Positions 14,729-25,920 of a stretch of 64,000 nt of DNA are shown here, piece by piece. Every line of letters starts with the position of its first letter. Within the stretch, counting starts at the first letter, position 1. Source of the stretch: Armatimonadota bacterium (GTDB taxonomy: Bacteria; Armatimonadota; SYMT01); the NCBI GenBank assembly GCA_041690135.1, contig JAWLHY010000004.1:32001-96000 (forward strand). Reading direction: 5' to 3'. The notes beneath the pieces were generated by a model. That model did no database searches, was not told the DNA's origin, and saw nothing but the letters and a program-made list of their open reading frames with translations. Both the position numbers and the translations under genes were made by a program.

Positions 14729-15364
14729 TCAATACGGACGCACGCTGAAGTCTCCGAGCGTCAGCGTCCAGCTGTCCCGCTGGTTTTCTGCCAGGAAACG
14801 CAGGACCGTTTCGCCTGCCAGGGCCGTGGCCATCAGGACCAGGTTGCGAGCCAGCGGGTAGTCGCAGACGTCGCCTGCGGCATCCGAGGGGACCCGGTAC
14901 TTTTCGTTCCAGATGACTTCAGCGTAGTCCGCGTTCAGGCCAACGTGCAGGCATGGCAGGCCCTCGCGCTCGCAGTGGTCGGCCACCAGACGACGGGAGA
15001 CGCTGTTGTCGAACCCGTCGACCACCAGGTCGGCGCCGGTCAGGAGTTTCCGGACGTTCTTCTCCGTAAGCTCCTTCGCTACCGCCTCGATCTCCACGCC
15101 AACCGCCCGAAACAGCAGGTGCTGGAGCGTCTCCGCCTTGAAGCCGCCCACGTCGTCGAGTGTCCACACCTGGGTGCTGACGTTATGCTCCTCGACGCGA
15201 TCGCGGTCGATGACGCACAGGTTTCCGGCGCCCTGCCGCGCCAGGTTCTCCGCCAGGTTCGACCCTACGGCCCCGGCACCGCATACAATGATTCGAGCTT
15301 CCGTCAGGCGAGCCATCACCTCCGGCCCGCGATAGATCTGTTCGTGGTGGAATTTCGTAGCCAT
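14729..15364 (-). CDS. ThiF/E1-like adenylyltransferase
   Basis: GAGAVGS nucleotide-binding loop, IDRDRVEEHNVSTQ, VVDGFDN, C-terminal DVCDY; start trimmed to MATKF. Confidence 0.9.
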   Translation of the reverse strand: MATKFHHEQIYRGPEVMARLTEARIIVCGAGAVGSNLAENLARQGAGNLCVIDRDRVEEHNVSTQVWTLDDVGGFKAETLQHLLFRAVGVEIEAVAKELTEKNVRKLLTGADLVVDGFDNSVSRRLVADHCEREGLPCLHVGLNADYAEVIWNEKYRVPSDAAGDVCDYPLARNLVLMATALAGETVLRFLAENQRDSWTLTLGDFSVRPY

Positions 15365-15404
15365 ACTCAGTACCCCCGGTTCCGTACGCCCGGTTCCGAA
15401 TTGA

Positions 15405-15627
15405 ACCGCCAAGACGCCAAGAACGCCAAGAGGGAAGAAGGGAAGTGCCAAGAAGAGAATGTAGGTAGCTCCGGATAGAGCGCCTGTTGTGCTCCGCCTA
15501 CACTAACTACCTGACGTATGCCCGTAGCTGCGTGCTGATTTGTCACCGCCAAGCACCAACTAAAAGCCATCCCATCCTCTTCTTCCACTCTCCTTTCCGA
15601 ACTTGGCGCTCTTGGCGTCTTGGCGGT
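15405..15627. repeat. Inverted-repeat element built from CGCCAAG-containing units (REP/MITE-like)
   Basis: ACCGCCAAGACGCCAAGAACGCCAAG (15405-15430) versus CTTGGCGCTCTTGGCGTCTTGGCGGT (15602-15627), with purine/pyrimidine-rich inner arms. Confidence 0.7.
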
Positions 15628-15639
15628 AAAGAGAGCACC

Positions 15640-16548
15640 CTAGCGGCGGCGCCGCCGCCGGCCTCCCGGCGGGTGGATCTCCCGGTAGACTTCCTCCGGC
15701 AAGCCGTGGTCGCCGCCGACGCGGGTCAGGTAACCCCGCTGCCCCTCGCGGATCACGCCGACCAGGCTGGTAAGGTCGAACTTCTCATCCTCGCCGGAGA
15801 GGCAGATCCCCGCCAGCATCACCGACAGGTCGTTCTTACGGACCGTCGCGGTGTGGGTCTCCCCGTCCACCGTAAAGGTCACGGCGTAAACGTCCTTCCG
15901 CTCGACGAAGCCGCGAAACTTCCCGTTCGCGTGATTTACCGCGGCCTTGAGGCGCTCCTCGGTGCTGTCACGCTGTTCCTGCTCGCGCAGCAGAAGCTGC
16001 CACTCGTAGGCCAGCCGCTCCTGTGGGGTCAGCGACGCCTTCCGGAGGTCATCCGGCTTGCGCCCTTCCTGGAGCGACTCCCGGAGGTAAGCCGCTATGG
16101 ACGGGCTCCGGCGGGGGTTGCGGCCCTCGACAAAGAACCGCGAGCCATCCCAACGCGCTCGCACCGTGTCGAAGACCTGGACCTCTCCCGGCAACAGGAC
16201 CGGCACCAGCCCGTCGAGCCGGAAGCGGGTGTCCGAGCCTTCGGCAGCCAATGCCCACCAGCCGTCCGCACGCTTCTCCGTAAGCACCAGCGACACCGCG
16301 GGAAACAGCCGGAGATACTCCCGGATCTGGCGCAGGCGCGCGGCCCCCACCACCCGCGCGGTGTGGGAGTCCTCCGGCTTCAGGAGCGCCCAGCCCTCGA
16401 AGTCGCGGGGCGCGACCTGAAACTTCCAGACGATGCCGGCAACCCGTACCTGAACCCCGGCCCCTTTCAACACCGGAGCCACGAAGGTGCTCTCCAGGAA
16501 ACTCTGCTCTTCCTGAGTCATTCGCCGCAGCAACTCCCGCACATCCAT
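15640..16548 (-). CDS. Hypothetical protein of the TROVE operon; possible E2-like C-terminal domain
   Basis: GAGG RBS; co-oriented with the operon; its only Cys lies in AGICLSGEDEKFDLTSLVGVI. The ORF is solid; the E2 call is inference. Confidence 0.7.
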   Translation of the reverse strand: MDVRELLRRMTQEEQSFLESTFVAPVLKGAGVQVRVAGIVWKFQVAPRDFEGWALLKPEDSHTARVVGAARLRQIREYLRLFPAVSLVLTEKRADGWWALAAEGSDTRFRLDGLVPVLLPGEVQVFDTVRARWDGSRFFVEGRNPRRSPSIAAYLRESLQEGRKPDDLRKASLTPQERLAYEWQLLLREQEQRDSTEERLKAAVNHANGKFRGFVERKDVYAVTFTVDGETHTATVRKNDLSVMLAGICLSGEDEKFDLTSLVGVIREGQRGYLTRVGGDHGLPEEVYREIHPPGGRRRRRR

Positions 16549-16559
16549 CGGAAATTCCT

Positions 16560-17327
16560 CTACTCCACGGGCTTCTGCCCCGTGATCACAAGACGGCGGC
16601 TCTCCAGGGTGAGCCGGCTGCCGTCGAGCCCACCGTAGACGACCACCCCCGCCAGGCCGGCGGAACGGAACATCGCCGTCAACTCGGCGGCGGTATACAG
16701 GCGCAGCGAATGACTGAAGCCCGAGCGGCGCCCATCCGGATAGATCAGCGTTCCCTTCACCTCCTGGCGACTGGTCGGGAGATCAAACGACCGCTCTTCC
16801 AGGACCAGGGTGCCGTCTTCCAGGCGCTGCACGCCGCTCTCCGCGAACCGGCGCAGGAGGCTGTCGCGATGGATGATCTCCATCAAGAACACGCCACCGG
16901 GTTTGAGGGCACGCACCACTCCCTGGAGAACCTTCTGATCTTCCGCCTCGTCTTCCAGGTAGCCGAAGGCGGTAAAGAGGTTGACCACGGCATCGAAACA
17001 GCCCTCGAAGGGGATCCGGCGCATGTCACTCCGCACCCACTGCACCTCCACGCCTTCCTCCGCAGCGTTCGCCTGCGCGTGGCGGAGGAAGCATTCACTC
17101 AGGTCGAGCCCGGTCATCCGGTAGCCTCGCCGGGCCAGTGGAACGGTATGCCGGCCGTGACCGCAGCAGAGATCGAGGAGGCGGCTTCCCGGCGACAGCG
17201 CCAGCAGTTCGCACACCCCCTCGACCTCCGCGGTGGTCCGCTCCGGAGTCAGCATGGGCGAGTAGCGCTGGAGGTACTCCTCATTGAAGATCTGCTCGTA
17301 CCAGGGGGTTTTCTCCATCGCTTGCAT
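16560..17327 (-). CDS. Class I SAM-dependent methyltransferase
   Basis: LLDLCCGHGRH, GLDLS, DMRRIPF, FTAFGY, ALKPGG; start 17327 or 17318. Confidence 0.9.
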   Translation of the reverse strand: MQAMEKTPWYEQIFNEEYLQRYSPMLTPERTTAEVEGVCELLALSPGSRLLDLCCGHGRHTVPLARRGYRMTGLDLSECFLRHAQANAAEEGVEVQWVRSDMRRIPFEGCFDAVVNLFTAFGYLEDEAEDQKVLQGVVRALKPGGVFLMEIIHRDSLLRRFAESGVQRLEDGTLVLEERSFDLPTSRQEVKGTLIYPDGRRSGFSHSLRLYTAAELTAMFRSAGLAGVVVYGGLDGSRLTLESRRLVITGQKPVE

Positions 17328-17470
17328 CTCCGCTCGCTCCACACCTTTATCGGAGGGGTGTGGGGGTGTGGGGGTGTGGGGGTGTGGAAGAATGGGAGAG
17401 TTGTTGCCCAAGTGGGGCTCCCTATCTCCCATTCGTCCCCCACCCATTCGTACCGAGTTTTCGCACCAGA

Positions 17471-18433
17471 TCAGGCGGCCGCCTCTTCCAGCAGCATCGC
17501 CCGGTAGACGCGACCAAGGGTCTTGCTGATCGCACTTCGGATGAGCTTGTCGTCGAACCCTTGCTCATGGAGCGCCTGCCACTCGGGCTCGCACTCCTTA
17601 CGAAGGTCATCGATCATCGCCGGCACCAGGCGCGGCATATCGGTCATGTCGCCGGCCACGGTCACGCCGGTATCCCGCAGGCGCCCGAGAGCGTTGATGA
17701 CACGCCCCCGCACGACGAAGGTTCGTGCGAACGTCTCGACCGGAGTCAGGTCGGGACGCTGCTCCCGGATCGACTGGCGGGAAACCTCCGCAAAGCGCTC
17801 GCACTTGTGCTTGACGATCAGCCATTCGCCGAACACGTTCCGCAGGAGCGGGTTGGAGCGGAGGACCACCCCTTCCATCAGGTTGGTCTCGCCGGCCACC
17901 CCTTGCGCCAACCCTTCCGGAGAGACGCGCTCCAGAAGGGCGTTGAACGCCTCCAGACTCGGCTCGCCGCGCCAGATTTCCGCCACCCGCGGCAGACCCG
18001 CCGCGTCGCACAACTCCACGAAGAGCTCATAGGTAACGAACGCCTCGCCGATGCGGATGTCGAAAGCCCGGAACAAGATGCGGTCGTCGGAGACGTAGCG
18101 CACGCCCTTCTGGATGCCGGCTCCGCAGATCTCGCCGTAAACCACCACGCTGCCGTAGCCGCGCTCGCGGAACAGGGACCCCAGCTTTTGGAGAAGTTCC
18201 GGACGCTCCTTGAACCAGCGCACCGGGCGCCCCGCGTAGAACTCATCGCCGCCGGAGGTTCCGAACTCCTCGTTGCGGCCTCCGTATTGGACCTCGTCAA
18301 TGGAGGTCATCCCGGCGGGAAAGTAGACCCGGAAGTTCGTGCCATGCAGTTTCTCCGTGGCGATGACTTCCTTCACCGCCAGCAGTTCCCGCCGTTTCTC
18401 CAGGCCCACGATTTCCGGGTACTTGTAGAACAT
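17471..18433 (-). CDS. ATP-dependent RNA ligase, Rnl2 family
   Basis: Motif I EKLHGTN, III YGEICG, IIIa FRAFDI, IV EGVVLR, V IVKHK, plus a C-terminal helical domain; GGAGG RBS. Confidence 0.9.
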   Translation of the reverse strand: MFYKYPEIVGLEKRRELLAVKEVIATEKLHGTNFRVYFPAGMTSIDEVQYGGRNEEFGTSGGDEFYAGRPVRWFKERPELLQKLGSLFRERGYGSVVVYGEICGAGIQKGVRYVSDDRILFRAFDIRIGEAFVTYELFVELCDAAGLPRVAEIWRGEPSLEAFNALLERVSPEGLAQGVAGETNLMEGVVLRSNPLLRNVFGEWLIVKHKCERFAEVSRQSIREQRPDLTPVETFARTFVVRGRVINALGRLRDTGVTVAGDMTDMPRLVPAMIDDLRKECEPEWQALHEQGFDDKLIRSAISKTLGRVYRAMLLEEAAA

Positions 18434-18460
18434 CTCTCCCTCCGGTTGAAGATGATTGAA

Positions 18461-18607
18461 TGGGGAGCCCGCGCGAGTTCCGAAAGCTGAGGTGTGTCTC
18501 TATCGATCTACAGTCGATTGCCTTTGACCGCTCGGCCACATCCTTACGGATGGTGGGATTCGAACCCACGGAGTGTGTGTAAGCTTCCGGGATGGGGCGC
18601 GGGCCCC
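18461..18607 (-). ncRNA. Y-like scaffold RNA 1 carrying a circularly permuted tRNA-Tyr(GUA) mimic
   Basis: Order: outer stem, T arm GUGGG-UUCGAAU-CCCAC, acceptor hairpin CAUCC-GUAA-GGAUG, D arm, anticodon arm AUCGA-CUGUAGA-UCGAU, outer stem; shared scaffold motif AGCUUACA. Confidence 0.85.
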
Positions 18608-18619
18608 TTAAACTGAAGT

Positions 18620-18670
18620 GAGGGCAATTTGCAATTTCAAATCTGCAATTTCAAATCTCAAATTGCCCTC
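18620..18670. repeat. AT-rich palindromic element with GCAATTTCAAATCT units
   Basis: GAGGGCAATTTG...CAAATTGCCCTC enclosing two tandem GCAATTTCAAATCT copies. Confidence 0.55.
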
Positions 18671-18689
18671 TGATGCGCTGTCGGAGCCC

Positions 18690-20318
18690 TCAGGAGGACC
18701 GCCGTACCGGCAGCGGGTACTCCATGATCTCCATCAGCATCTCGGTCCGCGAGGACTGCGAGAGCATCGGGATCAGGTTCGGCAGCGCGTAGTAATCGCC
18801 GCTGAACTGGAAAGCATCGGCCGCGAGACCGGCTGCCTTCATCTGCGTTTCAAGCATCTGCGAGGCCCCCCGCGTCTTCACGAAGCAGACATTCGGGTCC
18901 GCGTTGAGCTCCTCGCGATACTTCTGCAGCGACTGCGTGAAGCATGGCGGCGTGTTCTCCCCCTCGTCGGTGACCAGGATGATCTGCTCCACATACTGCC
19001 GCTTCTGCCGCAGGCGCTCGATACCCACGCCACAGGACGTCCCACCGCCGGCTTTCACCCCCGCCAGCGCCTTCTCCCAGGAGACCAGGTCCTGGCCCGC
19101 CGGTTCGATCTTGATGGCGATAGTGTCGAAGGCATAGACGTAGAGTTCGCTCTCACAGACGGTGCTGAGCATCGCCCCGATGCGCTTCCCCACCTCGATC
19201 GCCTCCTGCATCGACCCGGACTTGTCGATCAGCAGCGCGGTCGGCCGGGTGATCCGTCCCCGCAGCTTCACCTGGGCGTCGGTAACCTGGTCCAGCTTCT
19301 TCTCCAGGTCCGGATCGACGCCGGCCGCCTTCGCGGCTTCCTTCGCCTTGTAGGCAGAGACGCGCCGGTCGGTCTGCGCCCGCTCCAGCTTCTTCTCGAT
19401 GAGCGCCTTCAGGTCCGGGTTGTCCAGCGCCCCGCGCCGCTTCAGCGAACCGAGGTTGTTGATCAACTCCTGCGGCGTCATCGCTTCCACCAGCGCGACC
19501 AGCACCGTCGGCGTCATCTGGCGCACCGCCGACGACGCGATCCGGTACGGGATTCGGTGCTCCAGGATCGCCGCGGCCTGCTCCGCCGGCGTCGCCGCCC
19601 GCGCCAGGGCCTTCACCTGGAACAGCTTGCTGTCCGGAGGCGGGCTCTCCTCGAAGAGGATCGCCTGGGCTCGGTCGGACGGCGCGATGTGTGCCAGGGC
19701 ATAGAGTCGCTTCATCTGGCGGCGAGCCAGGGTCGCGCACTCATCGAACCAGGCCGGGTTCGCTTCCCGCTCTCGCAGGTAACGGCGCAGCTCCGTCTTC
19801 AGCGAGCGCGGCAGGTTCCGGAAGAGGCCCTGCTTGTCGAGCTTTTCCTGGACCACCGTCTCCACGGCCGCTCCCGGGGTTTCCGCCCCTACCCTCTGGA
19901 CAGCCTGTCCCTTGCGGCCCTTCTTCCCGCTGCGCTTCCGGCCCACCAGCGCGCGCAGCTCTTCGCGACGCTGCGTGGCATCCGGACGGACGCGCACCTT
20001 CCGGCGCTGGACCTTGCCGTGGATGAAATCCACCACCCGGCCGACCTGGTACGGCGGCATCCCCCGGAGCAGGGCCAGGCCGACATCCCGATGCCCTTCG
20101 AAGTCGCTCAAGACCAGGGTCGCCGCGAACATCTCCTTGTGGTCGCGCACCGCGCCGGTATCGGCATACCAAGCGGCCAGGTGCACGTAGAACCGCGGGT
20201 CCTGCTCGATCATGTCGGCATGCACGCAGTAGACCGACTCCAGGTCGCGGTGCGGGCACGCGAGCAGCGTGTTCAGGATCTGCAAACGGTTGTCCTGCTC
20301 GTTCATGGTCTGTTCCAT
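18690..20318 (-). CDS. Divergent TROVE/Ro60-like RNA-binding protein with C-terminal vWA domain
   Basis: Helical N-terminus with PRFYVHLAAW...VRDHK and QELINNLGSL; vWA MIDAS LIDKSGSM, GGTSCG, ILVTDEGEN; GAGGAGG RBS before ATG 20318; context of RNA ligase and tRNA-like RNAs. Confidence 0.8.
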   Translation of the reverse strand: MEQTMNEQDNRLQILNTLLACPHRDLESVYCVHADMIEQDPRFYVHLAAWYADTGAVRDHKEMFAATLVLSDFEGHRDVGLALLRGMPPYQVGRVVDFIHGKVQRRKVRVRPDATQRREELRALVGRKRSGKKGRKGQAVQRVGAETPGAAVETVVQEKLDKQGLFRNLPRSLKTELRRYLREREANPAWFDECATLARRQMKRLYALAHIAPSDRAQAILFEESPPPDSKLFQVKALARAATPAEQAAAILEHRIPYRIASSAVRQMTPTVLVALVEAMTPQELINNLGSLKRRGALDNPDLKALIEKKLERAQTDRRVSAYKAKEAAKAAGVDPDLEKKLDQVTDAQVKLRGRITRPTALLIDKSGSMQEAIEVGKRIGAMLSTVCESELYVYAFDTIAIKIEPAGQDLVSWEKALAGVKAGGGTSCGVGIERLRQKRQYVEQIILVTDEGENTPPCFTQSLQKYREELNADPNVCFVKTRGASQMLETQMKAAGLAADAFQFSGDYYALPNLIPMLSQSSRTEMLMEIMEYPLPVRRSS

Positions 20319-20341
20319 CGGGGACCTCCTCGTCCACATCA

Positions 20342-20490
20342 GGCCCGTACAAGTCGCTGGAGCGATTTAGACGTACAGGTGCTCTTCCACTGAGCTACGC
20401 CGGCAAGCAACGCCGGCGGCAGGACTCGAACCTGCGACCCCCCGGTCCGCAACCGAGACGTTTGTAAGCTCCCACCATAGGGTACGGGCC
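20342..20490 (-). ncRNA. Y-like scaffold RNA 2 carrying a circularly permuted tRNA-Arg(GCG) mimic
   Basis: Order: outer stem, anticodon arm CUCGG-UUGCGGA-CCGGG, GGGUC, T arm GCAGG-UUCGAGU-CCUGC, acceptor hairpin CGCCGGC-7 nt-GCCGGCG, D arm GCUC-AGUGGAA-GAGC, outer stem. Confidence 0.85.
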
Positions 20491-20492
20491 AA

Positions 20493-20564
20493 TCGGGGTG
20501 GGAGGAATCGAACCTCCGACATCGTGTACCCAAGACACGTGTTCTACCACTGAACTACACCCCG
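20493..20564 (-). tRNA. tRNA-Pro(TGG), no encoded CCA
   Basis: Full cloverleaf CGGGGTG/CACCCCG; anticodon loop CT-TGG-GT; A73. Confidence 0.92.
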
Positions 20565-20583
20565 TCCGCTCTCCTCACATTGA

Positions 20584-20794
20584 GGCTCGTGCAAGTCGCC
20601 GCAGCACTGCGTTTTTCGTTCCATGGACAGTCCGCCGGTGAGCTCTTACGCACTCTTTAAAGGGTGGCTGCTCTTGAGCCGACCTCCCGGGTTCTCTCCA
20701 TCCACTTCCCTTAGCGCCCGCCGGACTGCCTCTCGCCCAGCGGCCCATTTCCTCTCGTACTCGGTTTGTATGCTGCGCCCGTAGGGCACGAGCC
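20584..20794 (-). ncRNA. Y-like scaffold RNA 3 carrying a sarcin-ricin loop and a 23S H42-H44 (GTPase-associated centre) mimic
   Basis: Same outer scaffold; AGUACGAGAGGA at 20750-20761; 56-nt H43-H44-like segment at 20635-20690. Confidence 0.85.
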
Positions 20795-20816
20795 GCGGCG
20801 ACCCTGGCCGCCGGAA

Positions 20817-20890
20817 TGCCGATGATAGGATTCGAACCTACAACCAACAGGCTCTCGACCTGCCTCCTCTACCGATTGGGATACACCGGC
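20817..20890 (-). tRNA. tRNA-Leu(GAG), atypical (C33, short variable loop), no CCA
   Basis: GCCGGTG/CATCGGC acceptor, Leu-type D loop, anticodon loop TC-GAG-AG, A73. Confidence 0.75.
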
Positions 20891-20928
20891 ATCGCCCCAA
20901 TTCGGCCCCGCAACTGCGCGGCGACCGA

Positions 20929-21002
20929 TGCCCGCGGAGGGATTCGAACCCCCAACCTCCTGGTTCTAAGCCAGGCGCCTCTGCCAGTTGGGCTACGCGG
21001 GC
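20929..21002 (-). tRNA. tRNA-Leu(TAG), short variable loop, no CCA
   Basis: GCCCGCG/CGCGGGC acceptor; loop CT-TAG-AA; A73. Confidence 0.88.
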
Positions 21003-21014
21003 CTGAAAAATCCA

Positions 21015-21088
21015 GGCGAGTGGTGGGCCTCGAACCCACAACCTTCGGCATATGAGGCCGCTGCGCTCGCCAATTGCGCCACACTCAC
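21015..21088 (-). tRNA. tRNA with CAT anticodon (Met or Ile2), atypical, no CCA
   Basis: GTGAGTG/CACTCGC acceptor; loop CT-CAT-AT; G27:A43 mismatch; C at position 73. Confidence 0.75.
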
Positions 21089-21109
21089 TCAAAAAGAAAC
21101 GGGGCCAAG

Positions 21110-21180
21110 GGTGTCGGGAGGGAATCGAACCCTCATCGGCAGGGCCACAACCTGCTCGCTTCCCATTAGCGTACCGACAC
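21110..21180 (-). tRNA. tRNA-His(GTG), G-1 not encoded, no CCA
   Basis: GTGTCGG/CCGACAC acceptor; loop TT-GTG-GC; C73. Confidence 0.88.
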
Positions 21181-21181
21181 A

Positions 21182-21254
21182 CGGGGCTGGCGGGACTCGA
21201 ACCCGCGGTCTTCACCTCGACAGGGTGCTATGTTGACCACTACACCACAACCCC
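21182..21254 (-). tRNA. tRNA-Asp(GTC), no CCA
   Basis: GGGGTTG/CAGCCCC acceptor; loop CT-GTC-GA; G73. Confidence 0.88.
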
Positions 21255-21350
21255 AAGTGCTGCCCCCGGCATGGGGCAGCGAAGAAACTTGCATTCCAGA
21301 TTGTCAAAGAACGGTGCCGTAAACGCTCGCGCGTTCGCGGATCCCGGTTA

Positions 21351-21422
21351 CTCCGGCGGCAGGATTCGAACCTGCAGCCCGCGCCTTAACAGGGCGCCGC
21401 TCTACCGTTGAGCTACACCGGA
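21351..21422 (-). tRNA. tRNA-Asn(GTT), no CCA
   Basis: TCCGGTG/CGCCGGA acceptor; loop CT-GTT-AA; G73. Confidence 0.92.
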
Positions 21423-21435
21423 CCAGTTTTCAAGT

Positions 21436-21509
21436 TGCCTCCGGTGGGATTCGAACCCGCACTGAACCGCTCTTAAGGCGGTTGGCTCTGCCAATTGGCC
21501 TACGGAGGC
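21436..21509 (-). tRNA. tRNA-Leu(TAA), short variable loop, no CCA
   Basis: GCCTCCG/CGGAGGC acceptor; loop CT-TAA-GA; A73. Confidence 0.88.
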
Positions 21510-21525
21510 GCTATTCAATTTCCAA

Positions 21526-21599
21526 CAGGGAAGAGAGGATTCGAACCTCCGACCTCCGGGTCCGCAACCCGGTGCTCTATCCAGCTAAGCTACTCCCCC
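21526..21599 (-). tRNA. tRNA-Arg(GCG), no CCA
   Basis: GGGGGAG/CTTCCCT acceptor; loop TT-GCG-GA; A20 in the D loop; G73. Confidence 0.88.
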
Positions 21600-21604
21600 A
21601 AATT

Positions 21605-21740
21605 TAGCGGCGCGCAAGTTCAAGAAGCTGAAGTTCCGGATTTGAACCGGCACCTCCTGAGTAAGGATCAGGTGCTCTACCTTTGAGCTATTCGCTTGTG
21701 AAGCGAAGTTTGTAAGCTTCTCCGTTTGGGCGCGCCGCCA
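21605..21740 (-). ncRNA. Y-like scaffold RNA 4 carrying a circularly permuted tRNA-Lys(CUU)-like mimic
   Basis: Order: outer stem, acceptor hairpin UUCGCUU-CAC-AAGCGAA, D arm GCUC-AAAGGUA-GAGC, anticodon arm CCUGA-UCCUUAC-UCAGG, T arm CCGG-UUCAAAU-CCGG, outer stem. Confidence 0.85.
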
Positions 21741-21747
21741 GCCAAAT

Positions 21748-21981
21748 CTATCCGAACACGGCCTCGGGCCTTACGGTCCAATTTCCGCTTTCGTGATGCT
21801 CGACCACGTACTCTTCCAGTTCGCGGCTGGGCAGATCCAGATAACGAGCCAGCGCTACACGGACGTGGTAATCGCTCATCGGCTCGCCCACCCGCAACTC
21901 ACGCAGCGGAATATCGAAACTACGCCCCCGATAGCGAACGTGCAGCACTGCTTCCTGACGATTTCGCACTTGCTGAGCCAT
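21748..21981 (-). CDS. Small protein ending in ...EAVFG, candidate ubiquitin-like modifier
   Basis: AGGAG RBS; 77 aa; strand-strand-helix-strand-strand pattern; terminal Gly; first gene of an operon that contains an E1. Confidence 0.7.
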   Translation of the reverse strand: MAQQVRNRQEAVLHVRYRGRSFDIPLRELRVGEPMSDYHVRVALARYLDLPSRELEEYVVEHHESGNWTVRPEAVFG

Positions 21982-22001
21982 TTCTTTCTCCTATCCAGTC
22001 C

Positions 22002-22044
22002 AAAAATACCGAAGCCCCGAGGTCCGGATGGACCTCGGGGCTTC
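22002..22044 (-). terminator. Attenuator terminator A
   Basis: 15-bp hairpin GAAGCCCCGAGGTCC/GGACCTCGGGGCTTC followed by GGTATTTTT, just upstream of the first operon gene. Confidence 0.75.
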
Positions 22045-22071
22045 TACGCAAAGCCACTGCAGCCAAAATAG

Positions 22072-22230
22072 CTACACCGGAGGTCCTATCTGAATATTGC
22101 GATCACTTCGCCGCGGGAGATGTCCGGGGTTGACGGCATTACCCAGCAGCACAGCCAGATTCAGCAAGGAGCTAATCATCCCTGTCTGAACGTTCTTCTT
22201 ATTGATCTGCGTGTAATCCATCCAGCCCAT
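22072..22230 (-). CDS. Putative leader peptide A (52 aa, ends IQIGPPV-stop)
   Basis: First in-frame ATG downstream of the promoter at 22271-22298; the GPP codons are complementary to the 5' arm of terminator A. Confidence 0.6.
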   Translation of the reverse strand: MGWMDYTQINKKNVQTGMISSLLNLAVLLGNAVNPGHLPRRSDRNIQIGPPV

Positions 22231-22270
22231 CTTCGCTCTTCCGATCTCATCAACCCCGTCTCTGCATCGC

Positions 22271-22298
22271 ATTATAGATGCATTCTCCGAAGAGTCAA
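22271..22298 (-). promoter_or_regulatory. Sigma70-type promoter A
   Basis: TTGACT-N16-TATAAT on the minus strand. Confidence 0.7.
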
Positions 22299-22569
22299 TA
22301 CCTAATTTCAAGTATCTTCTAACTCGATTTCATCAATTGATTCGGATAGCTATTTGCTTTTATTCCGCAGATCCTTCAAGGGTTCTGCGACGCGTGAATG
22401 CGATTCCCCATCCCCCATAAGAGATGCGGTTCTATTCCACGAGCGAATGCAAAACGCCGGACCGCAGAGACACGGACGCTTTACGTTTACGCCAATCCAG
22501 TTCTTCTGATTTTCCGGATGGCCGGGTTTCGGGTCACTGTCCATCGATCATCTTCGGGCTCCGATCACG

Positions 22570-22604
22570 AAAAAGCCCCGAGGCCGGTGGGACCTCGGGG
22601 CTTT
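22570..22604 (-). terminator. Attenuator terminator B
   Basis: AAAGCCCCGAGGTC/GGCCTCGGGGCTTT hairpin ending in a U5 tract; near-copy of terminator A. Confidence 0.8.
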
Positions 22605-22630
22605 GCAGAACGGGCAAATACTACAACTGT

Positions 22631-22789
22631 CTAGCCGGGAGGTCCGCTGATACGCGTGTGGCGCAGGTGCTCGAAGCCGAGATTCCATCCGCTAAGCGCG
22701 ACACGCGGCGCCATGGAGTCAGTGCGTCGATCACAGGCCGGATCTGTGGTTAATCTGCGCTGGATCGAAATCACGACTCTTACTCGCAT
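22631..22789 (-). CDS. Putative leader peptide B (52 aa, ends RISGPPG-stop)
   Basis: Translated by hand (absent from the ORF track): MRVRVVISIQRRLTTDPACDRRTDSMAPRVALSGWNLGFEHLRHTRISGPPG. Confidence 0.6.
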   Translation of the reverse strand: MRVRVVISIQRRLTTDPACDRRTDSMAPRVALSGWNLGFEHLRHTRISGPPG

Positions 22790-22831
22790 GGAAAACGGTG
22801 GCCCCGCGAGGGGGTACTCCCTTGGTAACCG

Positions 22832-22860
22832 ATTATTGTCAGCACTTCCGGAGAAGTCAA
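22832..22860 (-). promoter_or_regulatory. Sigma70-type promoter B
   Basis: TTGACT-N17-AATAAT with an A-tract upstream; spacer resembles that of promoter A. Confidence 0.6.
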
Positions 22861-23131: not shown

Positions 23132-24490
23132 ATGAAGATGGGCAGAGCATCAGCGATTGCGGACATGCAGGAACCGGTGGAAGCGAGCGATGCACTGGAA
23201 CTGCTGTGGGACGAAGAAACGGATCCCGGTCTTCCCGAAATGGATGACTTGCCGGCAGAGGGAGCCGATCCGCGGAGCCCCACCGCATCGGAATTGCCGG
23301 TCCGGATTGCAGCCCTGGTCCGCCGCTGCGCGCCGTTGGAGCCAAAACCGCTGCTAAAGCCGACGCCGCGCTCCTATCAGGACGAGGCTCTGGCGGCCTG
23401 GCTGGAAGAAGGGGGCCGTGGCGTGGTGGTCCTCCCCACCGGAGCGGGCAAGTCGATCCTGGCAATGATGGCGGTAGTACGCCTGGGGGTGCGTCCGCTG
23501 GTCGTCGTCCCCACGCTGGAACTCCTCAAGCAGTGGGCCGAAGGTCTTTCCACTCATCTGGGGCTGCCCGCGGAGAGTGTCGGCGTCGTGGGCGGCGGTG
23601 CGCGCCGCATCGGCCCGGCCACGGTCATCACCTACGACTCCGCCTGGCGCCGGCCACGCGACCTGCGGTCGTTCGGGTTACTGGTCTTCGACGAAGTCCA
23701 TCACCTCCCCGCGGCTTCTTACCGCCGCATCGCGGATGCTTCGGAAGCACCGTTTCGCCTCGGCCTTACAGCCACCCCCGAGCGGGGTGACTTCCGCCAC
23801 AGCGACCTGGATGAACTGGTGGGACCGGTAGTCTTCCGTCGCTCGCCCGCGGAACTCTCACGGAGCCGGCACATCGCGCGCTTCCGCCAGGAGCGGCTCT
23901 TCATCGAGCTCACGGAAGAGGAAGAGTTCGAGTACCACCAGCTTATGGCGCAATTCAAGTGGTACATGGCGCAGAAACGGCTGTGGGGCCAGGGCTTTCA
24001 GCGACTCGTCTTCCGTGCTGCCTCCGATCCCGGGGCGCGGGAGGCGCTGCGGTGCCACCAGCGAGCCCGGCAGGTCGCCCTCAATGCTTCCCGGAAAGCG
24101 ACCGAGGTGCTGAATCTCCTCCAGCGTCACACCGACGACCGGGTGCTCATCTTCTGCGAGTTCACCTCCGTGGTGGATAGCTTGAGTCGCCAGCTACTGC
24201 TTCCCTCCGTCACCTACCGCACCCCGCCCGCGGAGCGACGCCTGACCCTGCAGCGCTTCCGCAGCGGCGTTTACACGAAGCTGGTGACCGGACGGGTGTT
24301 GAACGAAGGGGTCGACGTGCCGGACGCCAATGTCGCCATTGTGGTCAGCGGCAGCTCCACGCCCCGCGAGCAGATCCAGCGTCTCGGGCGAGTACTGCGC
24401 CCCAAAGAGGAGGAAGCAGTCCTCTACGAGTTGGTCGCGCGGGGAACCGTGGAAGAGCGCGCTGCCCGCGCCCGCAAGGTCCGGGACTGA
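23132..24490 (+). CDS. XPB/Ssl2-like superfamily II helicase
   Basis: PRSYQ, LPTGAGKS, FDEVHH, LGLTAT, EGVDVP, QRLGRVLR. Confidence 0.92.
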   Translation: MKMGRASAIADMQEPVEASDALELLWDEETDPGLPEMDDLPAEGADPRSPTASELPVRIAALVRRCAPLEPKPLLKPTPRSYQDEALAAWLEEGGRGVVVLPTGAGKSILAMMAVVRLGVRPLVVVPTLELLKQWAEGLSTHLGLPAESVGVVGGGARRIGPATVITYDSAWRRPRDLRSFGLLVFDEVHHLPAASYRRIADASEAPFRLGLTATPERGDFRHSDLDELVGPVVFRRSPAELSRSRHIARFRQERLFIELTEEEEFEYHQLMAQFKWYMAQKRLWGQGFQRLVFRAASDPGAREALRCHQRARQVALNASRKATEVLNLLQRHTDDRVLIFCEFTSVVDSLSRQLLLPSVTYRTPPAERRLTLQRFRSGVYTKLVTGRVLNEGVDVPDANVAIVVSGSSTPREQIQRLGRVLRPKEEEAVLYELVARGTVEERAARARKVRD

Positions 24491-24558
24491 GCTGGGGAAG
24501 GGAGCTGGTGAGGGGTGAGTGGTGAGTGGTGAGTGGAATTTGGAGAGGCGAAGCGGAG

Positions 24559-25920
24559 ATGAGTTTTCGATTGGTGGATTTGAAGAAGACGGTACGCAAG
24601 GGGAAGGACGGCTACCAGGTAACTCCCGCGCGCCTGGAAGGGCGCCAGGAGCAGTACCGGATTGAGTTCCTGCTGGGGCAGTTCGAGCAACACCTGGGAC
24701 AGCCCCGGAAGAACCTGGACCCCGCGGTCTTGCTGGATTTCGTGGGAGACGCTCGGATCGGGCGGGGTCTCCTGGCCACCCTTTCGCAGTGGTACCGCAT
24801 GCGGCCGCGCACGTTCACGGAAGTCCTCACAGCACCAGGGCCGGAGAAAAGGGCACGGGGTCGCGGAGATATAGCGGGCGATAAGAGCAGCGATGAACGT
24901 CTTCGACACCTGGCGGAGCTGGGCATAGAGGGACCCGCCGACCTGCGGGCCTGGTTGTATGCCGCCGTGAACCGGGGAGGCGGCGGGTTTCTGGCCCCGG
25001 CCGACGAAACACTCTTTTGGAAGATCCAGGCCCGCGCGCTGGGAATCGGCCGGGAAGAGTTGGAGCTGATGATGCTTCTCGATCGTACCGAAGAAGCGGT
25101 CCTGGTGCGCACCGGTCCGCGCCCCACGGCGGCGGATGTGATCGCGGCCTATAACGCCCGCGCCCACACAACTCTACTCCGCTCCTGCGCGGAACTCACC
25201 CTCCGGTGCGATGGCCGGCGCGAAGCCCTCGCAACGGCCCTGGAGAGTTGGGCCGCTCCGCTGGGTGTAGAGGGGCGGGTGGATGGCTCCTGCGTCACGC
25301 TCCTTGGCCAGGCGGACGTCCTGGGCTGCTGGACGCGTCACGGTCGCAAGCTGGAACGAGTGGCTCTCGAACTCCTGGGCCTACCGGAGCTCCAGGTGCG
25401 AGAGGCGCGTGGTCTCCTGGGTATCGGAGAACGGGAGTGCGGCTTCGCCTGGAAAGGAGAGACCCTCGCCCTCCTGACCGCCGGAAGCGAATGTCCGCTC
25501 CGCCATGAGCCGCTGGAAAGGATCGAGGCGCTTGCGACCGGCCTCCGGCGTCTGCGAACGGAAACGGATGGAGGCATTTCCTGGGGCGTACGGCGGCCGG
25601 GTCAGCTCCTCGGCGTAGCCGGCGGCGCCTGCCTTCCCCATCTGGAGCTCCGCTACAACGATCTCGCCCTCTACCTCCGGTTGACAGAGGCTGGAGAGGG
25701 TGCGCAGTGGCCTCGGACCTTCGCCGGCAAGACCCCGATCGGATTGATCGAGGGAAAGTCGGGAGACACCGCCACGCGCGTCCACCTCGCCGGGGCCGAG
25801 CCGCGATCATGCGAACTGGGGGACCTGGGAGCTCTCCTTCGCGAACATTGCTCACGGCTGGCCCCTGAACTCTACCCACAGCCCCGCGCGACCGGCCGGC
25901 AACTCCCGCAAGCCGCGTGA
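24559..25920 (+). CDS. DUF790/Bax1-like protein with a degenerate nuclease motif
   Basis: Directly follows the XPB-like helicase; IGRGLLATL, IAAYNARAHTTLL and TRHGRKL resemble DUF790 blocks. Confidence 0.6.
   Translation: MSFRLVDLKKTVRKGKDGYQVTPARLEGRQEQYRIEFLLGQFEQHLGQPRKNLDPAVLLDFVGDARIGRGLLATLSQWYRMRPRTFTEVLTAPGPEKRARGRGDIAGDKSSDERLRHLAELGIEGPADLRAWLYAAVNRGGGGFLAPADETLFWKIQARALGIGREELELMMLLDRTEEAVLVRTGPRPTAADVIAAYNARAHTTLLRSCAELTLRCDGRREALATALESWAAPLGVEGRVDGSCVTLLGQADVLGCWTRHGRKLERVALELLGLPELQVREARGLLGIGERECGFAWKGETLALLTAGSECPLRHEPLERIEALATGLRRLRTETDGGISWGVRRPGQLLGVAGGACLPHLELRYNDLALYLRLTEAGEGAQWPRTFAGKTPIGLIEGKSGDTATRVHLAGAEPRSCELGDLGALLREHCSRLAPELYPQPRATGRQLPQAA

Follow-up and report, generated by a model that had tools for sequence, protein, structure and literature searches.

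The subject of this report is a 64,000-nucleotide stretch from the genome of an Armatimonadota bacterium (GenBank assembly GCA_041690135.1, contig JAWLHY010000004.1, positions 32,001 to 96,000; the whole stretch is referred to below as the window), and within it a minus-strand unit that combines a gene for a divergent Ro60-like protein with four small RNAs of common design, nine tRNA genes and a putative ubiquitin-like protein with its activating enzyme. From its upstream end the unit runs through two terminator-like hairpins, a small Gly-terminated protein (S77), RNA1, eight tRNAs, RNA2, tRNA-Pro, RNA3, the Ro60-like gene, RNA4, an RNA ligase, a methyltransferase, a 302-residue protein with an invariant Cys and a ThiF-family E1-like enzyme (Table 1). 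A preliminary description of the stretch had listed these elements in this order, and open reading frame (ORF) listing, ARAGORN, Rfam and direct reading confirmed that all of them are read from the minus strand in that order. The four RNAs present different cargo modules, among them tRNA-like bodies and pieces of 23S rRNA, on what the evidence supports as one shared Ro/Y-type scaffold.

Table 1. Features of the Ro60-like unit of the window, in the order in which they are read, followed by the near-empty scaffold RNAs of viral loci.
Feature	Position	Strand	Basis
Sigma-70-like promoter site, distal (TTGACT-17-AATAAT)	22832..22860	-	10/12 consensus matches, consensus match only
Terminator-like hairpin 1 (12-bp stem, 9-nt loop, U tract)	22572..22604	-	Direct sequence reading
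Sigma-70-like promoter site, proximal (TTGACT-16-TATAAT)	22271..22298	-	11/12 consensus matches
Terminator-like hairpin 2 (15 pairs), directly upstream of the 77-residue ORF	22011..22044	-	Hairpin finder
S77, ubiquitin-like candidate of 77 residues, C-terminus ...RPEAVFG	21748..21981	-	ORF, homologues, complex model
Scaffold RNA1; cargo: acceptor-like hairpin, D arm, anticodon arm (loop UCCUUAC), T arm	21605..21740	-	Partial tRNA match, 40.9 bits
Eight extra tRNAs: Arg-GCG, Leu-UAA, Asn, Asp, His, Met, Leu-UAG, Leu-GAG	20816..21600	-	ARAGORN, Rfam
Scaffold RNA2; cargo: 23S rRNA mimic (sarcin-ricin 12-mer and L11/GTPase-associated-center domain)	20584..20794	-	Rfam LSU match
tRNA-Pro(UGG), extra copy	20493..20564	-	ARAGORN, Rfam
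Scaffold RNA3; cargo: anticodon arm, T arm, closed acceptor hairpin, D arm (YrlA-like core and anticodon stem-loop)	20342..20490	-	Rfam YrlA, 36.6 bits
Divergent Ro60 paralogue, 549 residues (TROVE-like ring and vWA with MIDAS residues DxSxS..T..D)	18690..20339	-	Predicted fold
Scaffold RNA4; cargo: T arm, closed acceptor hairpin, D arm, anticodon arm (loop CUGUAGA)	18464..18607	-	Folding, loop comparison
RNA ligase, Rnl2/PF09414 superfamily, local accessory gene	17471..18433	-	PF09414, 1.9e-19
Class I S-adenosylmethionine (SAM) methyltransferase, local accessory gene	16560..17447	-	Family profiles
302-residue protein, tandem OB-like barrels and C-terminal domain with invariant Cys249; candidate E2-like carrier	15640..16548	-	Model, alignment
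ThiF-family E1-like adenylating enzyme	14729..15451	-	PF00899, 1.7e-30
Near-empty scaffold RNAs	L096 4551-4621; L098 5311-5377, 5627-5697, 5716-5783; L100 7608-7677, 7686-7764		

In all four RNAs of the window the common frame is closed by a helix (S1), which an asymmetric internal loop separates from a second helix (S2); an invariant single-stranded UACAMAC then follows, after which the variable cargo begins. Its consensus reads ...CCCGUAC, CCnACnG, CAGGAGC, n and UACAAAC ahead of the cargo and GCUUUUG, nn ACU Y and GUACGGG behind it, with CCnACnG and nnACUY as the two sides of the conserved internal loop. Minimum free energy folds reproduce this frame in all four RNAs, with z = -6.1 for RNA1, -4.2 for RNA4 and -2.4 and -2.2 for the others. 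A scripted search for the motif and a closing helix after ACU was applied to 80 related loci and the window, which together form the 81 sources to which the scaffold counts given here refer, and it recovered 195 scaffold RNAs, of which 189 share the strand of the Ro60-like gene and six are read from the other one (four of these six look genuine, all of them in locus L067). As many as 179 of the 189 same-strand RNAs lie no more than 2.5 kb from the Ro60-like gene. The preliminary description had made its proposal depend on such RNAs being present in homologous loci, and 66 of the 81 sources hold at least one; these counts are lower bounds, because variants of the motif such as UACAAGC in L091 escape the search. 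A scan of the entire 9.1-Mb genome gave 111 loose matches, with the strict motif and a high score coinciding only at the four RNAs of the window; one additional strict match was marginal.

Strong support for the structure of the scaffold comes from covariation. Helix S2 was not used to find the RNAs and is therefore independent of the detection rule; at least five of its seven positions are paired in 170 of 172 unique RNAs, with compensatory changes, and it lies at a fixed offset in 160, with AU, GC, GU and CG pairs alternating. When 47 RNAs with the most frequent type of cargo were aligned, RNAalifold and a tally of paired positions yielded 29 pairs in five covarying helices, namely S1, S2, a T stem, a closed acceptor hairpin and a D stem. 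Paired cells amounted to 98.8% compared to 75.6% in shuffles (none of 500 reached the observed value) and 28-47% when the partner strand was slid, and double changes were seen in 22 of the 29 consensus pairs. Because S1 was part of the selection rule, only S2, the T stem, the closed acceptor hairpin and the D stem count as independent support. Some scaffold RNAs of low-GC viral loci are just 67-79 nt long and have almost no cargo (Table 1), and their occurrence there means that the scaffold alone may be a functional unit.

The cargo itself is most often tRNA-like. Among 175 strict RNAs, a T-arm-type hairpin was found in 128, of which 83 also have a D-arm motif and 45 have the T arm only; a further 11 carry only an anticodon-type stem-loop, six are rRNA-like and 30 could not be classified. 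A motif search outside the scaffold set added two rRNA-like RNAs, for a total of eight. The scaffold enters the cloverleaf at differing points, giving the arm orders T-D and A-T-D in 61 RNAs, D-T and D-A-T in 15, and also T-D-A and others. A canonical anticodon-type hairpin, defined as 5 bp and a 7-nt loop with U at loop position 2 and a purine at position 6, is present in 59 of the 169 non-rRNA cargos, compared to a mean of 9.2 and a maximum of 18 in shuffles, and these 59 hairpins show 29 different anticodons. Shuffles served as the control because the reverse complement is uninformative here, T and anticodon loops being quasi-symmetric under the U33/R37 rule.

In the window the mimicry extends to individual sequences, albeit to a varying degree. 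Three of its RNAs had been described beforehand as permuted versions of tRNA-Lys, tRNA-Arg and tRNA-Tyr. The loop of RNA3, UUGCGGA, is indeed identical to the loops of both genomic tRNA-Arg(GCG) genes, and that of RNA4, CUGUAGA, matches the CUGUAAA of tRNA-Tyr at six of seven positions, but the Lys assignment of RNA1 fared less well, its loop UCCUUAC being a poor copy of the CUCUUAA of the genomic tRNA-Lys(CUU), and a weak one because position 33 is C and not U. RNA2 carries rRNA. Its nucleotides 20623-20705 align to positions 1077-1160 of the Rfam LSU_rRNA model with 54.3 bits (gathering score 50), that is, to H42-44, the L11/GTPase-associated center (GAC), and this stretch has 57-62 identities in 78-85 aligned columns with the 23S rRNA of four planctomycete genomes. 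The reference 23S genes were taken from these four other locus genomes. We found no true 23S gene in the window's own assembly, in which the sole match is the RNA2 mimic, nor in 11 of 12 genomes of relatives that were searched. RNA2 contains in addition, closed by a short stem of its own, the 12-mer AGUACGAGAGGA (20750-20761), which occurs once in each of five out of five real planctomycete 23S loci, about 240 nt from the 3′ end, at a position that we take to be the sarcin-ricin loop (SRL, H95).

Folds, the Rfam LSU match, the 12-mer and the loop comparisons thus support the preliminary view of one scaffold displaying anticodon loops, the sarcin-ricin loop and the L11 site. As a feature of the system at large, ribosome-mimic cargo stood up less well, since it is present in the window but rare elsewhere: SRL modules were found in two of the 81 sources, a GAC module in one, and the two together in the window only. 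Other pieces of 23S rRNA are displayed in related loci. For instance, L012 has a cargo that is sarcin-ricin only, and L002 and L047 have cargos starting with an exact 19-nt copy (19/19) of the 23S H69-H70 junction, which recurs with variation in L008, L010, L019 and L058. A metagenome scan for close relatives of the window returned two loci. Eight exact-pattern matches to an SRL on the scaffold in IMG/VR were all attributable to chance; none is a scaffold RNA and none is accompanied by proteins of the system.

The protein encoded amid these RNAs had been called a TROVE-vWA protein, a label that holds for its predicted fold but not for the Pfam family: the TROVE model (PF05731) does not match the window protein at E ≤ 0.01, and phmmer against the PDB produced just E 5e-3 to two TROVE entries. 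When its AlphaFold2 model (pLDDT 74) was compared with the PDB, however, ranks 1-12 were all chains of Ro60, Rsr or phage Ro60, matched over 506-559 columns with E 4.2e-11 to 1.6e-7 and TM scores of about 0.5 (best 0.50); among the rows listed down to rank 14, the one exception is rank 14. Judged by this model the 549-residue protein is a divergent Ro60, with a helical-repeat ring and a vWA domain. The residues of its predicted metal ion-dependent adhesion site (MIDAS), D372, S374, S376, T434 and D458, are invariant in 17 sequences, and its relatives P0018 and P0042 reach the Pfam vWA_Ro60 model with 30.7 and 28.7 bits (cut-off 27.7). The family to which it belongs is large and unnamed (2765 proteins at E ≤ 1e-3 among 8000 scored). 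A canonical TROVE gene is located elsewhere in the same genome (G000:C2:299609-300502; PF05731, 145 bits), and the window protein therefore represents a second, distinct Ro60 system. About 100 nt upstream of the canonical gene there is a sub-threshold Rfam match to nematode stem-bulge RNA (L090 7442-7510; 36.5 bits, threshold 38), a family related to the Y RNAs.

The ubiquitin-like component begins with S77. Its homologues are about 75 residues long, 45 of 46 ORFs end in Gly, as in ...RPEAVFG, and the C-terminal G77 is invariant in 33 sequences. A model of the S77/E1 complex scored 0.73 compared to 0.00 for the best control. The partner pLDDT was 81, and the runs agreed with each other in no less than 89% of contacts; when the threshold was calibrated, 58 of 80 solved complexes passed it, as did two of 110 mismatched pairs. 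Tail residues 71-77 of S77 contact E1 residues 58, 60-63, 146-150 and 170-178 in the model, which places the tail against the GxGxxG loop and the adjoining active-site segments, in the nucleotide site of the E1. These predicted contacts support the preliminary proposal that the Gly-ended protein and the ThiF enzyme are a ubiquitin-like pair. The E1, whose likely true start is Met30 of the ORF (~15364), has its best NCBIfam matches in ThiF, MoeB and SAMP-activating E1, and it also matches PADLOC E1-E2 models at 1e-17; with NCBIfam 6A-MBL cap2_3 it scores 68 bits, below the cut-off of 320.

More difficult to place is the 302-residue protein. It has 520 family members, all hypothetical and none with a Pfam domain; Pfam, NCBIfam, PADLOC and the ESM Atlas assigned it to no family, and a profile search of the PDB gave just ribosomal protein L14 at E 0.005. 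Its model (pLDDT 91.8) has two OB-like barrels and a C-terminal domain in which a helix and four strands are followed by the invariant Cys249 and then by helices. Cys249, the sole invariant Cys of the protein, is situated in the motif AGICLsGxDxxFDLxSLVGVLRE. The barrels match the tandem OB of Mpa/PAN type (Z 5.2 over 101 residues) and also S17, IF1, RsgA and RNase II/R with Z of about 5 (Foldseek, VIA). In these structural searches, which were dominated by OB folds, the sole E2-like row was FANCL-DRWD (Z 4.5, root-mean-square deviation 3.8, 75 residues). A Prok-JAB peptidase (PF14464; 37.1 and 35.9 bits, cut-off 25) is encoded between the 302-residue protein and the E1 in 25 of the 80 loci, and because it adjoins the gene of the 302-residue protein in this way, the reading of that protein as an E2 gains weight.

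Relatives of the unit are numerous, with at least 588 confirmed among 598 pattern stretches in species-representative genomes, and among the matches listed the host bins are mostly Planctomycetota but also Chloroflexota, Myxococcota-type and others. Conservation of gene neighborhood, which the preliminary description had suggested as a check, proved to be selective. In 44 loci with full flanks, the small protein, the OB/Cys protein and the E1 are all present beside the Ro60-like gene in 28, all missing in 12 and partially present in four, and these three genes therefore behave as one optional block, near all-or-none. The scaffold RNAs, on the other hand, follow the Ro60-like gene, because eight of the 12 loci without ubiquitin-like genes retain them. 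The RNA ligase and the methyltransferase were found in none of the 80 loci. Consequently, the earlier idea that a repair ligase is part of the system was not upheld; the ligase recurs only in L091, the closest relative available, whose Ro60-like protein is 72% identical to that of the window. Accessory genes found elsewhere encode AAA ATPases (two loci), an extra vWA protein (seven loci) and the products of several unnamed ORFs; two clusters of antisense shadow ORFs were left out of the clustering of flanking ORFs.

The unit is also carried by viruses. Seven loci were found in IMG/VR, six of which have the small protein, the OB/Cys protein, scaffold RNAs and tRNAs; the records include one classed as a complete 97.5-kb genome with direct terminal repeats (DTR), one of 204 kb with a terminase match and two classed as proviruses. 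The viral nature of these contigs rests mainly on their IMG/VR classes, because a terminase model matched two of five viral records and the capsid model PF05065 none of the five. In addition, the complete set is encoded in a 595-kb GenBank record labeled “uncultured phage”, where no fewer than seven scaffold RNAs accompany it. That phages carry the unit is consistent with a part in conflicts over translation, whichever side may benefit.

Spare tRNAs are a further recurrent component. ARAGORN called 230 tRNAs outside the scaffold RNAs of the 80 loci, 227 of them on the operon strand; at least four are present in 11 of the 80, and arrays of 16-35 tRNAs, in which most amino acids are covered, end directly upstream of the small ORF. 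The nine array tRNAs of the window are extra copies, each identical to its housekeeping counterpart at 48-57 of 74-85 positions. Those with the Leu anticodons UAA (21436-21509), UAG (20929-21002) and GAG (20816-20891) are 74-76 nt long and lack the extended variable arm that is present in the genome's housekeeping tRNA-Leu genes, which measure 81-85 nt. Four-base anticodons (gtca, gaaa) were called by ARAGORN in the arrays of L055 (7010) and L100 (5540-5615), and these tRNAs may be frameshift-suppressor-like or aberrant.

Upstream of S77, each of the two promoter-like sites is followed some 225-230 nt further on by a hairpin with a U tract, and the arms of the two hairpins are nearly identical (AAGCCCCGAGG / CCUCGGGGCUU), so that the region looks like a duplicated leader unit. 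Hairpin 1 was not reported by the automated finder, which has a loop limit of 8 nt. The term “attenuator” used for these elements beforehand is an interpretation; the signals seen are promoter-like and terminator-like only, and a search of the region for a leader peptide gave no convincing ORF. Another hairpin, with arms of about 12 nt (GAGGGCAAUUUG / CAAAUUGCCCUC) that enclose a tandem duplication of a unit of about 14 nt, lies between the stop codon of the Ro60-like gene and RNA4 (18608-18689, minus strand) and may be a processing or termination signal. The flanks are ordinary chromosomal genes, encoding an enolase-superfamily enzyme, a nucleoside symporter, an XPB-like helicase with a DUF790 protein, and a histidine kinase. 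The XPB/ERCC3-like helicase (ResIII and Helicase_C) and the DUF790 protein are divergent to the operon (23132-25920, plus strand) and are presumably a pairing of the XPB-Bax1 type.

A major question raised by this combination is “What would such a particle be for?” Our working proposal, to which we assign a little less than an even chance, is that the unit encodes a Ro60-type ribonucleoprotein system in which scaffold-borne mimics serve as bait and are coupled to ubiquitin-like tagging. The Ro-like ring would bind the scaffold RNA, and the cargo mimics would attract proteins that recognize anticodon loops or ribosomal factor-binding RNA, whether these are endogenous factors or RNA-cleaving toxins made by a phage, a competitor or the host itself. 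The E1 would then charge the OB/Cys protein, which would pass the small protein on to the captured protein or else to the particle as such, and the JAB peptidase, where present, would reverse or process the tag. The extra tRNAs could supply replacements and, in the window, the ligase could repair damaged RNA. A more specific form of the proposal is that the library of RNA mimics on the Ro60-like ring specifies which proteins are marked by the ubiquitin-like protein, E1 and OB-E2, for example RNases that attack translation, and that bacteria and huge phages use it in conflicts over translation; this we consider possible but doubtful.

Several of our observations weigh against the bait-and-tag proposal. 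The anticodon repertoire (29 anticodons among 59 hairpins) shows no bias toward a particular toxin, the loop of RNA1 deviates from a true anticodon loop, and rRNA-mimic cargo is rare (SRL in 2/81 sources, GAC in 1/81). Twelve of the 44 complete loci do without the ubiquitin-like genes. The S77/E1 complex model resembles the solved MoeB-MoaD and ThiF-ThiS pairs, and for this reason its passing score may reflect likeness and not proof; the modeled complex would also fit a sulfur-carrier role equally well. The 302-residue protein is a candidate E2-like carrier on the basis only of its predicted topology, its invariant Cys and its operon context. Finally, tblastn gave no match to a JAB peptidase in the window and there is no such ORF in the 275-nt gap between the gene of the 302-residue protein and the start of the E1 (~15365-15639, minus strand), a gap that may be the remnant of a gene loss.

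If the particle does not bait proteins, could it be engaged in classical Ro60 RNA quality control or repair? The cargo would then tether the ring to enzymes of tRNA or rRNA processing, modification or decay, or to ribosomal proteins and factors, much as a Y RNA tethers Rsr to PNPase; damaged RNA would be threaded through the ring and degraded or repaired, and the ubiquitin-like genes would only regulate the particle. The Ro60 fold is what such a role would lead one to expect, as are the YrlA-like T/acceptor/D core of the commonest cargo, the RNA ligase beside the gene in the window and L091, and the 12 of 44 complete loci that have no ubiquitin-like genes and mostly keep their RNAs; furthermore, YrlA is recognized by tRNA enzymes according to the available text of Chen et al. 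(2014; PMC4201824). Left unexplained, however, are the near all-or-none linkage with the ubiquitin-like protein, the OB-Cys protein and the E1 (28 of 44 loci) and the display of complete anticodon loops and ribosomal factor sites. In addition, the genome already has a canonical TROVE gene with a Y-like RNA of its own, and the repair genes are not conserved (ligase and methyltransferase in 0/80 loci). On balance we judge quality control without baiting to be rather unlikely. A different role for the ubiquitin-like genes, which we consider improbable, is that of a sulfur-carrier pair like ThiS/ThiF, MoaD/MoeB, TtuB/TtuC or CysO/MoeZ, which would deliver sulfur through the Cys of the 302-residue OB-fold protein and so thiolate nucleotides in the scaffold RNAs or in the tRNAs next to them. 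The E1's best NCBIfam matches (ThiF, MoeB and SAMP-activating E1), the tail-in-pocket complex model and the OB folds, which suggest RNA binding, are all in keeping with it, and JAMM peptidases accompany sulfur-carrier pathways as well. Yet the 302-residue protein has neither a PP-loop nor Fe-S thiolase features, only one invariant Cys and no family match; neither a rhodanese nor a cysteine desulfurase was seen among the conserved genes; the small protein terminates in FG and not GG; and AAA ATPases are accessories in two loci.

The tRNA-like scaffold RNAs could also be regarded as circularly permuted tRNA precursors, in which the helices bring the ends together for cleavage and ligation and the acceptor loop is opened, with functional tRNAs as the outcome. 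Permuted tRNA genes have a precedent in a red alga, and closed acceptor hairpins, three points of entry into otherwise complete cloverleaves and an RNA ligase in the window and L091 would all suit such precursors. A parallel is offered by the YrlA of M. smegmatis, which is cut by RNase P and receives CCA, as reported in the text available of Chen et al. (2014; PMC4201824). Against this stand the frequency of incomplete tRNAs (45 RNAs with a T arm only, 11 with an anticodon stem-loop only, 30 others and eight rRNA-like), the near-empty scaffolds of 67-79 nt in phage loci, the absence of the ligase from 80 of 80 loci and a scaffold sequence far more conserved than a splice signal would need to be, and we consider the idea very improbable. 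Hardly credible, lastly, is that the RNAs owe their appearance to chance resemblance or are the debris of decaying tRNA and rRNA pseudogenes beside an unrelated vWA protein. That Pfam TROVE does not match the protein, and that all eight SRL-on-scaffold pattern matches in viral contigs were due to chance, can be cited in its favor, but the strand bias of 189 to 6, the covariation in 47 aligned RNAs, the genome-wide control in which the strict, high-scoring scaffold is confined to the four RNAs of the window, the gene order kept in dozens of species of several phyla and the Ro60 fold predicted for the 549-residue protein all speak against it.

How does the unit compare with systems already described? 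Like Ro60 (Rsr) with its Y RNAs, it encodes a ring protein of TROVE and vWA type beside one or several small RNAs, and like YrlA its commonest RNAs combine a long closing stem with a tRNA-like module of T arm, closed acceptor and D arm and occur in phages also. The protein differs in that it is missed by Pfam TROVE and is a paralogue in a genome with a canonical TROVE gene. The RNAs differ from YrlA (RF02553) in score, the best being 36.6 bits for RNA3 (model positions 24-84) compared to a gathering threshold of 69, which no RNA reached in the window or in nine further loci; RNA3 matches the model in part because its T/closed-acceptor/D core is the YrlA arrangement. The scaffold has an invariant loop of its own and UACAAAC, and it is without the GNCGAAN0-1G motif given in the available text of Chen et al. 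(2014; PMC4201824), which also discusses an anticodon in Yrn1 of D. radiodurans. Compared to Y RNAs in general, the cargo here includes full anticodon loops and pieces of 23S rRNA, and the unit is linked to ubiquitin-like genes. In YrlA the anticodon stem reportedly continues into the Ro-binding stem with no anticodon loop, as the work of Chen in 2014 and Wang in 2018 is said to show, whereas RNA3, RNA4 and many of their relatives have a separate anticodon-type hairpin of 5 bp and 7 nt.

The ubiquitin-like genes have their closest likeness in the prokaryotic Ubl-E1-E2-JAB operons, Bil/Bub and CBASS Cap2/Cap3, with which they share a Gly-ended small protein, a ThiF-type E1, a Cys-bearing third protein, a Prok-JAB in many loci and an occurrence in mobile and phage contexts. 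Here, by contrast, the candidate E2 matches no E2 family in sequence and is fused to tandem OB folds, and none of the known systems is associated with a Ro60 protein or with noncoding RNAs; neither Iyer et al. (2006; PMC1779556) nor the Bub preprint (PMC11601596) mentions TROVE, Ro60 or vWA. With the sulfur-carrier systems named above, and with TtuA and Mec, there are likenesses in the family matches of the E1, the Gly-ended protein and the optional JAMM peptidase, but here there is no thiolase, rhodanese or desulfurase partner, the end is FG and not GG, and the genes are linked to a Ro60-like ribonucleoprotein. The rsr-yrlBA-rtcBA operon of Salmonella likewise unites Ro60, Y RNAs and an RNA ligase, but the ligase of the window is of Rnl2 type and not RtcB, is not conserved in the family and has no RtcR or RtcA seen with it, and ubiquitin-like genes and tRNA arrays are added. 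The Salmonella operon is an RNA repair operon linked to tRNA damage in the available text of Hughes et al. (2020; PMC7790460). In its clusters of co-oriented tRNAs, up to 35 extra genes that are unlike the housekeeping copies, in their presence in huge phages and, in the window, in a leader with terminator-like hairpins, the unit also resembles tRNA gene arrays. Such arrays are known from the cyanobacterial trn operon, mycobacteria and phages, and they differ from those described here in that ours are joined to a Ro60-like/ubiquitin-like unit and, in the window, interleaved with scaffold RNAs. Carriage of tRNAs by huge phages is recorded in the available text of Al-Shayeb et al. (2020; PMC7162821), from which terms for a link of Ro60 with ubiquitin-like genes are absent.

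The preliminary description knew of no account of this combination, and our literature search found none either: no paper was found in which Ro60/TROVE is connected with ubiquitin-like genes or a Y-type RNA is described as bearing rRNA cargo, in a search that did not cover supplements or the 2016 article by Burroughs and Aravind. That article is said to survey TROVE-linked repair systems, and it may bear on novelty. The available part of Kaur 2020 contains neither a link of Ro60/TROVE to ubiquitin-like genes nor a Y-type RNA with rRNA cargo, and that of a jumbo-phage review has one sentence on ROT/TROVE with a tRNA-like partner. The nearest co-mention is in the accessible text of an Asgard-virus preprint, where Ro60, an RNA ligase and three ThiF/E1-like genes are named for a single virus but no connection between them is drawn.

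We conclude that, as far as the literature we found shows, modular cargo including rRNA mimics, coupling to ubiquitin-like genes and adjoining tRNA arrays are unprecedented in Ro60/Y-RNA systems. Particles of Ro60 and Y RNA have been conserved all the way from bacteria to humans, and what they do is still a matter of debate. The large unnamed sister family described here, which comprises thousands of proteins and at least 588 stretches confirmed in species-representative genomes, takes the idea of a Y RNA to an extreme, in that a single scaffold, predicted to bind protein, is combined with interchangeable cargo, and the ease with which such cargo can be swapped opens a direct approach to the purpose of Y-RNA modules. 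The family connects Ro ribonucleoproteins with prokaryotic ubiquitin-like conjugation, two fields that were unlinked in the literature we found, and its carriage by phages together with near-complete sets of spare tRNAs places the system in the struggle between phage and host over translation. If our proposal is true, this would be the first case of noncoding RNAs choosing the substrates of a ubiquitin-like pathway; the combination as such already suggests a novel means by which cells may protect or manipulate their translation machinery.

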